Shown here piece after piece: positions 5,897 to 60,051 of a DNA stretch of 64,000 nt. The stretch covers positions 13,688 to 77,687 of the IMG/VR virus record IMGVR_UViG_3300015263_000597; one strand, given 5' to 3'. The notes under the pieces are model-generated. The model ran no database searches. It was not told the origin of the DNA and saw only the letters and a program-made list of their open reading frames with translations. The stretch is from a virus. Position numbers and translations under genes: made by a program. Positions within the stretch are counted from its first letter, which is position 1, and the number at the start of each line of letters is the position of its first letter.

Positions 5897-5912
5897 AGCA
5901 AGAGCTGTGCCA
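5897..5912 (-). promoter_or_regulatory. sigma54 (-24/-12) promoter
   Basis: Minus strand TGGCACAGCTCTTGCT (GG-N10-GC), 55 nt upstream of the 5841 start. Confidence 0.85.
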
Positions 5913-5999
5913 AATGGTCTCATAGCGTAGAATACGCCTAGGCACTTGGCTACACGGGCTCTAGACCACTAACTGCACCGTACCCGTAGCATAGAATCA

Positions 6000-6045
6000 T
6001 CCAATGATTTGGACTTATTCAAATTTCTGGATACGGATTTTTGGA
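6000..6045. promoter_or_regulatory. Triple-palindrome enhancer-like array A
   Basis: TCCAATGATTTGGA / TTCAAATTTCTGGA / TACGGATTTTTGGA. Confidence 0.75.
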
Positions 6046-6249
6046 TTCCACCTGGCTATCTAGCTCGTCTGCGAATCTCTCCAGAGCTAGCAGTATGATC
6101 TCTGTCATGAAGGCCGGGCGGTCGGTCGCTCCAGGCTTCCGCCAATCTCGTTTAACCGGTATCCGTATCTGTTCACGAATGGCGTTTAGTCGCGCCCATA
6201 GGTCGGGGGGTATGTTACGTAGATGGTAGTTATGGGCCATTGTTAGCAC
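6019..6249 (-). CDS. Putative ribbon-helix-helix DNA-binding protein
   Basis: NYHLRNIPPDLWARL...MTEIILLALERFA follows the Arc/FitA-like pattern. Confidence 0.55.
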   Translation of the reverse strand: MLTMAHNYHLRNIPPDLWARLNAIREQIRIPVKRDWRKPGATDRPAFMTEIILLALERFADELDSQVESKNPYPEI

Positions 6250-6587
6250 CAGTTTATGGGGAGGGGGATGCCCCCCCCCCCCCCCCCCCCCCCCCCCCCC
6301 CCCCCCCCCCCCCCCCCCCCCACCGCAGAGTCATCGACGACATGCTGATCATGAGTATCAATGATCCGCTCTGCTCTAGCTACCAGCCGCTCTGACAGTT
6401 CCCACATGGTCTCAGCGCCCTTGCGAGGGCGGTTACCAGCCATAAGGGACGACAGGGCAGTACACGCGCTCTGCACCGTCTGGATCGTGCTGTTCAGCTC
6501 ATAGCCAACAGCGCCAGAGTGCTGAACAAGAGCCCAGCTGAGGCAGTTGTAGTGTTTGTCGAGGGCTTTGCGGGTGATAGCGGTCAT
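6243..6587 (-). CDS. Hypothetical protein (3' end unreliable, runs into homopolymer)
   Basis: AGGAG RBS, ATG at 6587; the C-terminus crosses the C51 tract. Confidence 0.6.
   Translation of the reverse strand: MTAITRKALDKHYNCLSWALVQHSGAVGYELNSTIQTVQSACTALSSLMAGNRPRKGAETMWELSERLVARAERIIDTHDQHVVDDSAVGGGGGGGGGGGGGGGGGIPLPINWC
6271..6321. repeat. C51 homopolymer
   Basis: 51 consecutive C; possibly a sequencing or assembly artefact. Confidence 0.9.
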
Positions 6588-6614
6588 GGTATGTCTCCTG
6601 ATCTGTGGTTGGTT

Positions 6615-6668
6615 GGCTCATCAGTGACTAGGTACCACCTAGCCAGACGGGGCGTACCCCGTTTCGCC
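6615..6668 (-). ncRNA. Hammerhead ribozyme, type II
   Basis: Minus strand GGC-GAAA-CGGGG-TACG-CCCCG-TC^-TGGCTAGG-TGGTA-CCTAGTCA-CTGATGA-GCC: complete core and three stems. Confidence 0.92.
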
Positions 6669-6896
6669 TTAAACTGAGGCAGTCATTAGCTGCACAGACG
6701 CACTGAGGAGAGAGTCTGCCTGAGCAATGCCTGCCTTCATCCACTCTCCAAACCGAGGGTGGCGCTTCTCAGATTCGGTGAAGATCGTCCAGTCAGGAAC
6801 GGTGTTGTCTAGACGGGCAAGAGCGAAGGCACGAATGGCCTTTTCTTCGAGGGCGGACTCTTCGTCGAGCATGTTGCTGGTGTAGATGGCGGTCAT
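6669..6896 (-). CDS. Hypothetical protein
   Basis: AGGAG RBS before ATG at 6896; stop codon abuts the hammerhead. Confidence 0.7.
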   Translation of the reverse strand: MTAIYTSNMLDEESALEEKAIRAFALARLDNTVPDWTIFTESEKRHPRFGEWMKAGIAQADSLLSASVQLMTASV

Positions 6897-6952
6897 GGTC
6901 TTGCTCCTAGTCGGTGTTGGTCTCTGGGGCGCGTCCCCCGTTCGATGAATAC

Positions 6953-6995
6953 AGTGTAGGACAGGGCTCTGCAAAAGTCAACCCTCTTTTGCAGA
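6953..6995 (-). promoter_or_regulatory. sigma70 promoter with overlapping inverted-repeat operator
   Basis: Minus strand TTGACT-N17-TACACT; perfect IR TCTGCAAAAG-N8-CTTTTGCAGA (6968-6995) straddles the -35. Confidence 0.75.
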
Positions 6996-7268
6996 AAAAT
7001 TTCGTGGCCTAGCAGGTCCTCTCAGTAGTCTGGTTCTTAGGCACCCTCTATTGAGGACATCAGGGGCTTAAACTCGCTTATGCCCGCCTACCGCAGCGAT
7101 AGAGGACAAAGGGATCCAGAAGTCTTGTTAGCTACTGTTGACCTCTTGATGAACTGGTCGGCTAGTGCTGAGGGCAAGGAAGACCCGAGCTGCCCTGTAC
7201 GCTTGTTGACATCGTCATGAACATACGCACTGCATTTACCAGCTGGCAGCAAAACGGGCATGTGCTAG

Positions 7269-57894: not shown

Positions 57895-58192
57895 GGGAGA
57901 TAGCTAAATGCCTGCACAGTTCAAGGTAATTCTGGGTGCTGGGAACCCCACTCACACCCTTAACATCGGCACAGACGAAGAGGCGCTAGCGGCGATGCGT
58001 GACTACCTCGCGGGGGATCCAGCGTCGTACTTCAAGGCGGGAGCTGTGCTCAACACTGACGAAGCGCCACAAGCTACTGACTGGCTCACGGCACCTGACG
58101 CCTTAGTTGTCCAAGTGTTCACTGAGCGTCTGTTTGAGACAACCACTGCTCTGCGTAAACGTGGCTCAGGGCGACTGTAGAAGGAGAAAGAC

Positions 58193-59186
58193 ATGCGGAC
58201 AAGCACATGGGTGATGATTGCGGTATTCGCTGTTCTAGCAATTGCCGCATCGCCGAAAGGTAATAAGGCTAACTTCGTAGAGGAAGGGATAACGAGCGCA
58301 GTGCCAGTGGGTAACTACGTCGAGCTAGACGGACACTACAACTGCCTAGTCGGTGGCAGTTTTGACACCGCGTCGGTATCCGTCGAAGCCCTCGTGAATA
58401 CGCGTATAGGCACCCAAGTCGTCGCAGTTCCTGAGCTAGATGGTATAACCGAGCCGTCTGGGTGGGTGTATGTTAGGTATGCTCACGGGTATAAGTACAG
58501 GCTAGTAGCGTCTGGCGGAGCAGGTAACGTAAACGTGTGGTGGACATGTGGTAGGATAGGAGCCTGATATGATTACGAAAAGAAATATCGCGGCAACCTT
58601 GGTTCTCTCGTGCGCCATCGTTGTGCCGATCATCATCGCCCAGACAGGAGAGCCGAACTTTATCACTAAAGAAGAGGCGGCGGCTACGTACCTGGTGCCA
58701 AATGATCTGATTGTTCCCGGTGCCGATATCGGATCATACTCCCCTACCTGTGCGCCAATGATTGCGATAGACGCAGATCCAGGCATCGTTACGCATGTTA
58801 CAGGTCTTACAGACAATGTGAACCCTATTATCATCGGCACAAATCCGAGCGACCCGATAGGCAGTTCGGTCCTTGTAAACGATTCGTCACTGACCCCTGG
58901 TGCGAGGATTGAAATATCTGCCTCAGCTGTCGTGATTACAAACGTCAGCACTACAGCAGAGTTTCTGGTTACCATAGACGGCAAGGTGTCTAGCGCCACG
59001 TTTAGCCAGATGGTAAGTCCGTTCAGTGGCACAGCTGGACTTCGTAGATCTATCACGGTTACGAGCGCTATACGCAACGTCGCTAATGGGGCCGTTCTGC
59101 GAATTGCGTTCAGATCTACAGGCACGGCAGCCACGTTGCAGTTATGTAAAGCATCACTTGAGGTCAGCGTACAGCACGCGCAATAG
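58193..59186 (+). other. Two signal-peptide-bearing beta-sandwich-like CDSs (58193-58567, 58569-59186)
   Basis: MRTSTWVMIAVFAVLAIAAS and MITKRNIAATLVLSCAIVVPIIIA N-termini. Confidence 0.65.
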
Positions 59187-59215
59187 ACCCGTTGGATAGA
59201 TAGAGAGGAAGAGAG

Positions 59216-59740
59216 ATGGCTAATGGGGACAACAGCGAAAAAGTGTTCAGCGCTAGTGAGTTTCGAGTACTCAGGAAGATGCTGGACAAAGGAGAACCCG
59301 CCATGCCTACGTGTAACCACAACGATGAGACGAGTGTAACTATGCAGAGTAGCGGAACAGCGATAACGGCAATGGCGCAACGTCCGGGTTGGTGGGGGGT
59401 AGTAGGTATAGTTGTTCTCATTGTCATGCAAGCGGTTAATCCTAAGCTAGAGGCTATCGGAGATGGGGTTGACGATGTCAAAGCTGCGGTTACTACTCTG
59501 CAAGCTAGTGTGTCTTCTATTCAGGGTACGGTGAATAGACTGGAAGGCACGACGAACATGCATAGCTCAGCGCTTAATTCGCAGGCTGCGGATATAGAAA
59601 AGCTGAGTAAGGAGCTGGCATTTCAAGGTAGACTGCTAAGTAATGTGCGCGTGAACGTAGACACCTTGGAAGGTGTTATGGAGAATGTCTACGGGCAGAG
59701 GATAACACTCAAGCCAGAGCCGGTAAGAGAGGGTAACTGA
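59216..59740 (+). CDS. Single-TM coiled-coil protein (holin/spanin-like)
   Basis: WWGVVGIVVLIVM helix then heptad repeats; last gene of the late operon. Confidence 0.5.
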   Translation: MANGDNSEKVFSASEFRVLRKMLDKGEPAMPTCNHNDETSVTMQSSGTAITAMAQRPGWWGVVGIVVLIVMQAVNPKLEAIGDGVDDVKAAVTTLQASVSSIQGTVNRLEGTTNMHSSALNSQAADIEKLSKELAFQGRLLSNVRVNVDTLEGVMENVYGQRITLKPEPVREGN

Positions 59741-59842
59741 CCGTAACGAAAGGAGGACGGGATGCGACGCGAAGATGATGACGACGAAGCTGCTGTTGAT
59801 CCGAAACCAGGGCCGTAGGGTGGCCGGGTAGGATTGACGCTT

Positions 59843-59877
59843 GGCGCCGTTGGGGAAACCCAGCGGCGTTTTCATTT
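59843..59877 (+). terminator. Intrinsic terminator
   Basis: GGCGCCGTTGGG-GAAA-CCCAGCGGCGTT-TTCATTT. Confidence 0.8.
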
Positions 59878-59927
59878 GTGTGATTGTTGATAAAAGGATC
59901 TAGAGGTCTTAATGTCTTGATGTGCTG

Positions 59928-59973
59928 TTCAGATTTTTGGATCCAAGGGATTGGATTTGTTCAAATAGTTGGA
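59928..59973. promoter_or_regulatory. Triple-palindrome enhancer-like array E
   Basis: TTCAGATTTTTGGA / TCCAAGGGATTGGA / TTCAAATAGTTGGA. Confidence 0.8.
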
Positions 59974-60035
59974 TGGGGGAGTTCTGTATAAGGGAGATTT
60001 TTGCAGATTGGTGAGGAATGTGGTGGGGTTAGGGC

Positions 60036-60051
60036 TGGCACGCAGATTGCT
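60036..60051 (+). promoter_or_regulatory. sigma54 promoter
   Basis: TGGCACGCAGATTGCT upstream of ORF 60105-60284. Confidence 0.85.

Follow-up and report, generated by a model that had tools for sequence, protein, structure and literature searches.

We identified a set of sigma-54-type promoters paired with arrays of palindromic sites in a 64,000-nucleotide stretch of DNA from an uncultured phage of marine sediment (the window, bases 13,688–77,687 of the 77,687-bp IMG/VR record IMGVR_UViG_3300015263_000597, rated 100% complete by CheckV; positions below are those of the window). The reading that we favour, with a probability of about 0.62, is that these elements are sigma-54 promoters with enhancers copied from a sensor kinase/response regulator operon of Acidobacteriota, and that a host protein would activate them. 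This reading is supported because the phage genome has no recognisable activator of its own, because the layout is conserved in a second, distantly related phage, and because the same motif recurs in Acidobacteriota with the same polarity and distance from a sigma-54 promoter. As the enhancer appears to copy that of an operon conserved in Acidobacteriota, this phylum is the probable host phylum.

Exact matches to TGGCAC-N5-TTGC occur seven times in the window (5898−, 8952−, 10833−, 11066+, 12362+, 60036+, and 34541−), compared with 0.24 ± 0.43 in shuffled sequences, and none of 100 shuffles reached seven. All but the match at 34541 continue as TTGCTA (n = 6, 0.04 expected by shuffling), and in these six strong promoters GG and GC are exactly 10 nt apart, within TGGCAC-N5-TTGCW. 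Each of the six is followed by a start codon in the same orientation 51–61 nt past TTGC, usually with a recognisable ribosome-binding site, and the sequence TTGCTAnnnAGnCTGG is identical in four of them (5898, 8952, 10833, and 12362). An earlier reading of this DNA (hereafter the original prediction) had listed seven GG-N10-GC promoters immediately upstream of co-oriented gene starts, four of them with a shared extension. The extension was recovered exactly and six promoters stood, while the seventh (14896+) proved weaker. It reads TGGCAAGCTTGTTGCAA, in which GG-N10-GC is exact but the core has one mismatch (TGGCAA), and it has neither the TA extension nor an array and lies 24 nt from its gene. 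A simple sigma-70 scan of positions 4700–15200 gave no excess of sites (6 found, 7.1 expected). The remaining exact match (34541–34555, minus strand) is antisense within the terminase gene and lacks an array. Sigma-54 binding sites inside genes have been mapped in Escherichia coli (PMC4591121), and this match may be another of that kind. Another element (33707–33721) resembles the 11066 and 60036 promoters also in its downstream extension; as it has no array and is located 280 bp ahead of the terminase gene, it may be a late promoter.

The 14-bp palindrome TYCAR-N4-YTGRA is present 16 times in the window (0.64 expected, no shuffle reaching 16), and 14 of these sites are located in arrays. With one mismatch allowed, the sites form six clusters across the 77.7-kb genome, namely five triple arrays and an orphan at 11772–11799. 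All triple arrays run [site][site], a gap of 3–4 nt, [site] in the direction of the promoter, and two of them include a degenerate site (6032–6045 in the array at 6000, 12240–12253 in the array at 12240). The pairing of six promoters with five triple arrays, as originally predicted, was found again at 6000, 9056, 10943, 12240, and 59928, and the distances from the last site to TGGCAC were remeasured as the predicted 87, 89, 78, 77, and 62 bp; the array at 10943 is also used by the promoter at 10833, which lies on its other side at 95 bp. The suggested helical phasing of these distances is approximate only, with values of 62, 77/78, and 87/89 bp in this phage and 96, 96, and 105 bp in the second phage described below (G152). 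No array overlaps a promoter, the shortest distance between the end of an array and TGGCAC being 62 bp. The dyads sit 62–95 bp upstream of the promoter in this phage and 96–105 bp upstream in G152, within the enhancer range of 60–150 bp.

The sigma-54 holoenzyme forms a closed complex at the −24/−12 promoter that is opened only by an AAA+ activator bound upstream. A profile search of the complete record yielded no match to Sigma54_activat (PF00158) or Sigma54_DBD (PF04552), which bears out the original prediction that the phage encodes no sigma-54 activator. Dependence on a host enhancer-binding protein, the other part of that prediction, gains support from this absence and from the comparisons with G152 and Acidobacteriota that follow.

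G152 was recovered by scanning IMG/VR and JGI metagenomes for the pattern TGAA-[site]-gap-[site]. It is a second complete phage of 77,728 bp with terminal repeats and a GC content of 45%. Fourteen proteins of the present phage, including PolA, helicase, terminase, portal, capsid, and tape measure proteins, match G152 at 26–39% amino-acid identity, and the order of the shared genes is kept. G152 has exactly three site clusters, all of them triple arrays of the same polarity, located 96, 96, and 105 bp upstream of TGGCAT-N5-TTGC, and likewise gave no match to Sigma54_activat (PF00158). When all nine units of the two phages were aligned, conservation was confined to the dyads, TGGCA, TTGC, and a TAG located five bases downstream. 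That the arrangement of array and promoter persists despite such divergence of the proteins indicates that it is under selection. The unit is also found on short metagenome contigs. In one of them (L052), a triple array lies 61 bp ahead of GGGCAT-N5-TTGCA. In two others of 2.2–2.4 kb (L044, L050), a triple array adjoins a pair of sigma-54 promoters that face each other and overlap, each with TGCTATA at its end, and nine tandem copies of GTTTCGTTAGAGG. Several metagenomic or viral sequences with 4–6 sites (L035–L038, L047, L054) had no sigma-54 promoter and were rejected as repeats or coding sequence.

One genome per species (185,579 species) was scanned for [TGAA][site]-gap-[site], which resulted in five matches. 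The only one with a sigma-54 promoter, 61 bp downstream, was in an Acidobacteria metagenome-assembled genome (MAG), where the locus consists of a half-site, TCCAAAATGCTGGA, a 4-nt gap, TTCAATCCCCTGGA, 61 bp, and TGGCACGGAATCTGCTT. The other four (Thiohalobacter, Sedimentisphaerales, Tepidisphaerales, and Ignavibacteriae) were in coding sequence or had no sigma-54 promoter and were set aside as chance matches. The operon behind the MAG promoter encodes a sensor kinase of 928 amino acids (GAF-PAS-HisKA-HATPase) and then a response regulator with REC and Sigma54_activat domains, which led the search for a host regulon with an adjacent activator, as proposed in the original prediction, to an acidobacterial kinase/NtrC-family regulator operon. 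Full-length orthologs of the kinase are present in five other genomes of the order (46–52% identity), and the same sites and promoter precede them wherever upstream sequence exists. The gene downstream of the kinase encodes a REC/Sigma54_activat/AAA_lid/HTH_8 protein of 460 amino acids, which scores below every curated NCBIfam cut-off; the nearest models are AtoC and NtrC, with AtoC the best (494 bits, cut-off 714).

Within one acidobacterial order, 64 of 151 genomes contain the pattern site-N50-80-TGGCAY-N6-TGC, compared with one for the reversed control, and a kinase ortholog lies 100–140 bp downstream in 24 of 30 sampled loci. In a phylum-wide sample, 52 of 251 genomes have the pattern (control, n = 5). 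Several host promoters have the full [s1][s2]-gap5-[s3] architecture 59–61 bp from TGGCA. The corresponding distance at the phage promoter at 60036 is 62 bp, and its array is the closest copy of the enhancer geometry of the host kinase operon. RpoN (Sigma54_DBD above cut-off) is encoded in five of five genomes of Acidobacteriota regarded as candidate hosts. CarboxypepD_reg/TonB-receptor genes and an Omp85 gene likewise have site pairs ahead of putative sigma-54 promoters. These loci appear to constitute a conserved and previously undescribed regulon of Acidobacteriota, composed of a self-controlled kinase/regulator operon and TonB-receptor genes; the latter suggest nutrient uptake as the context of the signal. 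Many kinase promoters (L060, L064, L065, L066, L082, and G001) have a fourth site-like box, TTCAAAWWWCTGA, 2–4 bp upstream of TGGCA, which is missing from the phage promoters and may be a promoter-proximal site for the regulator or an integration host factor (IHF)-like site. At two contig ends of another genome (G023; L010, L019), a TYCAR-N4-YTGRA pair is located directly 3' of a tRNA gene, possibly at the boundary of an integrated element.

In the mechanism that we propose, the six strong elements would be genuine sigma-54 (RpoN) promoters read by the host RNA polymerase holoenzyme, and the three-palindrome arrays would be their upstream activating sequences (enhancers). Dimers of a host response regulator of the NtrC family, with, in this order, a REC domain, an AAA+ sigma-54 domain, and a Fis-type helix-turn-helix (HTH), would be recruited to the arrays. 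Three dimer sites are enough to nucleate a hexamer; here, three bound dimers would form the active hexamer, which would contact the closed complex 60–105 bp away by looping and open the promoter at the expense of ATP. The phage would thus bring promoters and enhancers, the latter a copy of the autoregulatory enhancer of a sensor kinase/regulator operon conserved in Acidobacteriota, and the host would bring sigma-54 and the activator. With sigma-54 and activator supplied by the host, the phage operons should fire only once the host kinase activates the regulator. Expression of the small-gene operons would follow the phosphorylation state of the host two-component system, and the replication operon, through the promoter at 60036 (P7, Table 1), would probably depend on the same system.

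Several observations weigh against this reading. The pattern of site plus promoter was also found in 18 of 201 Pseudomonadota genomes. These matches share no gene context, lack a second site, and look unrelated and mostly coding, but they imply that the true background is higher than the reversed control suggests, and the enrichment per megabase is about 2–4 fold rather than about 80 fold. As the reversed control understates the background, the argument is one of orthologous placement and shared architecture and not of raw counts. The host is assigned from regulatory similarity, and no independent host link was obtained. When 401 Acidobacteriota genomes were searched with the capsid protein for such a link, one weak partial match was returned, and no link through clustered regularly interspaced short palindromic repeats (CRISPR) or prophages was found. 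Acidobacteria carry many activators of this type, and the kinase operon's own regulator is the presumed binder of the sites because autoregulation is common in the family. The host gaps are mostly 5 nt (4 nt in G001) compared with 3–4 nt in the phages, and the GC content of the phages (45–52%) is below that of most matching genomes. No clear IHF site was found between arrays and promoters. A match to WATCAANNNNTTR occurs between array and promoter only at P5, where it lies at −39 and has one mismatch; the other one-mismatch matches are within or upstream of arrays. A site bent by IHF or another protein between enhancer and promoter is common but not obligatory. The support is comparative throughout, and it is from comparison that we infer regulator binding, activation, rpoN dependence, and the host.

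Some of these points would also fit the main alternative, in which the elements are sigma-54 promoters with enhancers, but another host enhancer-binding protein, possibly from another phylum, acts on them, and the likeness to the acidobacterial operon stems from convergence or from an HTH specificity that is widely shared. The motif-only host assignment, the near absence of capsid relatives among Acidobacteriota, the lower GC content of the phages relative to the many GC-rich matching genomes, the different gap lengths, and the failure of the regulator to match any curated equivalog all leave room for it. We nevertheless consider it unlikely, as the scan of 185,579 species gave a bona fide unit of sites plus promoter in Acidobacteria only, as motif, polarity, abutting first site, and the distance of 59–62 bp all coincide, and as the control matches in Pseudomonadota share neither the second site nor a gene context.

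Quite improbable is that the arrays are lambda-like operators for a DNA-binding protein of the phage (a repressor, anti-activator, or timing factor) and that the promoters are fired by other means. Three adjacent dyads do recall lambda OR and OL, the array at 11772 stands without a promoter, and candidates for such a protein exist among small HTH-like genes of the phage (26453–26785 and 19583–20092) and two small early proteins conserved between this phage and G152. The HTH-like genes, however, have no G152 homolog at E below 1e-5 even though the motif is conserved there, and the early protein g49 has a Cys/His/Asp pattern and weak fold matches to papain- and transglutaminase-like enzymes. The arrays are 62–105 bp upstream of the promoter elements and do not overlap them, a single array serves two divergent promoters, and host genomes carry the same sites at sigma-54 promoters of their own. 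Moreover, the sigma-54 closed complex needs an AAA+ ATPase, and the phage encodes none. Far less probable again is that the 35-bp element only resembles a sigma-54 promoter and is read by another polymerase or sigma factor, encoded or modified by the phage. Conservation beyond −12 (TTGCTAnnTAG) is reminiscent of phage-polymerase promoters, and nine promoters of Pseudomonas phage YuA share a phage-specific motif and are inactive without phage factors (PMC10914365). Against this stand six perfect matches to the ten-position sigma-54 core, which is beyond chance, and an enhancer geometry typical of sigma-54 promoters; no such polymerase or sigma gene was recognised in a scan of the larger phage proteins.

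The host-activator reading draws on classical machinery. Upstream activating sequences are a feature of the autoregulated two-component operons of the NtrC family, such as glnAp2/NtrBC, zraSR, and atoSC. The present system shares with them a −24/−12 promoter, dyads for a REC-AAA+-HTH_8 regulator 60–150 bp upstream, and presumably looping, and the host operon would be of this type. It differs in that the enhancer copies are in a phage genome without the regulator gene and in that the phage has six arrays of 14-bp 5-4-5 dyads with fixed polarity. The NorR enhancer of norVW has three sites that nucleate a hexamer; the triple arrays similarly offer three dimer sites upstream of a sigma-54 promoter, enough for one hexamer, but NorR recognises GT-N7-AC, is a GAF-AAA+ protein and not a response regulator, and has another spacing. 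The lambdoid operators OR1-3 and OL1-3 are also sets of three adjacent dyads repeated at several phage control regions. Lambda operators overlap the promoters that they control and adjoin the repressor gene, unlike the arrays of this phage, which are 62–105 bp upstream, have fixed polarity, and are present in host genomes at sigma-54 promoters.

Phage transcription is usually described in terms of sigma-70 promoters together with factors or polymerases made by the phage. To our knowledge, YuA is the only phage for which dependence on sigma-54 has been published, and we know of no cultured phage system for Acidobacteriota. YuA, a Pseudomonas aeruginosa phage (Yuavirus) without a polymerase of its own, depends on host sigma-54 for its development (PMC5053324), and mapping of start sites has confirmed one sigma-54-like promoter (PMC10914365). 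The architecture described here had originally been regarded as one not known from phages. The use of sigma-54 as such has this precedent, and the available text on YuA describes one sigma-54-like promoter and no enhancer arrays, compared with the six strong promoters with apparently copied host enhancers of the present phage. When 50,697 phage records were searched with the terminase, the groups named were Gordonia, Microbacterium, and Arthrobacter phages, with no Pseudomonas phage among them, and a capsid search of the same records returned nothing. These searches thus detected no relationship to YuA, nor any proteins shared with YuA or M6. What appears to be new is thus a multi-promoter phage regulon that copies an autoregulatory enhancer of the host, together with the indication of an acidobacterial host.

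In both phages, which share only about 30% protein identity, small-gene operons appear to be driven from sigma-54 promoters. If the phage enhancers copy those of a host regulator operon, infection would hinge on an environmental signal of the host, a form of decision-making that needs no regulator gene in the phage. A further extension, which we regard as doubtful, places all early and replication genes under a single two-component signal of the host, from a system that also appears to control TonB-dependent outer-membrane receptor genes. If such a receptor were the port of entry, the activator would already be on in any cell open to infection, and the six arrays, multiplied by replication, could titrate the regulator away from host promoters, which would make the enhancer copy both gate and decoy. 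On this extended reading, the copy would also provide a sequence-only route for assigning hosts to uncultured phages, here to a first candidate lytic phage family of Acidobacteriota.

Table 1. Window positions of the sigma-54-type promoter elements and palindrome arrays of the phage.
Feature	Position	Strand	Description
P1, sigma-54-type promoter	5898–5912	−	TGGCACAGCTCTTGC then TACATAGACTGG; first gene 5557–5841(−), 56 nt downstream
P2, sigma-54-type promoter	8952–8966	−	First gene 8282–8890(−), 61 nt downstream
P3, sigma-54-type promoter	10833–10847	−	First gene 10223–10780(−), 52 nt downstream
P4, sigma-54-type promoter	11066–11080	+	First gene 11134–11349(+), 53 nt downstream
P5, sigma-54-type promoter	12362–12376	+	First gene 12428–13045(+), 51 nt downstream
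P7, sigma-54-type promoter	60036–60050	+	First gene 60105–60284(+)
Weak sigma-54-like site, doubtful	14896–14910	+	TGGCAA-N5-TTGCAA, no array; 24 nt before gene 14935–15171(+)
Candidate extra promoter, unproven	33707–33721	+	TGGAACCGACTTTGC then TATGAGTAGG; no array; 280 bp ahead of terminase gene
Array A1	6000–6045	−	Sites 6000–6013, 6018–6031, and degenerate 6032–6045; 87 bp upstream of P1
Array A2	9056–9101	−	Three perfect sites (9056, 9074, 9088); 89 bp upstream of P2
Array A3	10943–10987	+	Three perfect sites between divergent P3 and P4; 78 bp from P4, 95 bp from P3 (reverse polarity)
Array A4	12240–12284	+	First site with one mismatch, two perfect; 77 bp upstream of P5
Array A5	59928–59973	+	Three perfect sites; 62 bp upstream of P7
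Orphan array A6	11772–11816	+	Two abutting perfect sites, CTC gap, half-site; no sigma-54 promoter within 100 bp

Genes were assigned from a home-made gene call and family scans. The genome is organised like that of a siphovirus, with genes for terminase, portal, capsid, and a tape-measure-like protein of 2097 amino acids, and replication genes precede the window (UDG-PolA fusion, DEAD_2-type helicase, AAA_24, ERCC4). The DNA polymerase A (L001:1149–3989, before the window) has an N-terminal domain of the uracil-DNA-glycosylase (UDG) superfamily fused to exonuclease and polymerase domains. P7 heads a run of same-strand genes that extends to the end of the window and beyond; if the record is circularly permuted, this run would resume at the start of the record with the replication genes (PolA, helicase) as one operon. 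Ten promoter-proximal genes had no Pfam or PHROGs family match, and most other early genes were likewise without a family.

Searches for relatives returned little. Neither a nucleotide search of the early and structural regions against the 50,697 phage records nor a search of IMG/VR for capsid and portal relatives gave a match, and the strict extended-promoter pattern was not found in IMG/VR. A portal search of 5.8 billion proteins recovered the phage's own cluster and one relative at 36%, and a protein-atlas look-up of the phage lipase yielded no host-indicating taxon. The sole public sequencing run that contains the sequence is marine sediment metagenome DNA, and no RNA run carrying it was found.

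The gene g49 (11830–12252, plus strand; counterpart in the second phage L058:14087–14455) encodes an early protein of both phages with invariant Cys21, His52, and Asp65 and a C-terminal CxxC...C...C pattern. Two small proteins that this phage has in common with G152 could be modelled only at low confidence (predicted local distance difference test, pLDDT, 59.6 and 43.6), and the models had no significant Foldseek match. The weak Foldseek rows for g49 were papain- or transglutaminase-like enzymes and not DNA binders, and for this reason g49 may be a cysteine protease or deamidase.

A 50-nt poly-C run (6273–6322) lies within an open reading frame at 6243–6587 on the minus strand. Logan contigs of the only run containing the sequence leave 6243–6640 unbridged, and one of them departs from the window sequence at 6242, with five differences in the 62 bases before that point; the discontinuity reflects either an assembly artefact or a cassette that varies between strains. 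At 1648–1723 on the plus strand there is a tRNA-Met (CAT) gene, and a 115-nt segment at 39615–39729 on the same strand, not called by ARAGORN, scores 29.2 bits with the Rfam tRNA model (gathering threshold 29). Two type II hammerhead ribozymes were found on the minus strand at 8217–8282 and 6607–6669 (49.5 and 40.6 bits, Rfam gathering threshold 37), each in an intercistronic gap of a minus-strand operon behind a putative sigma-54 promoter.

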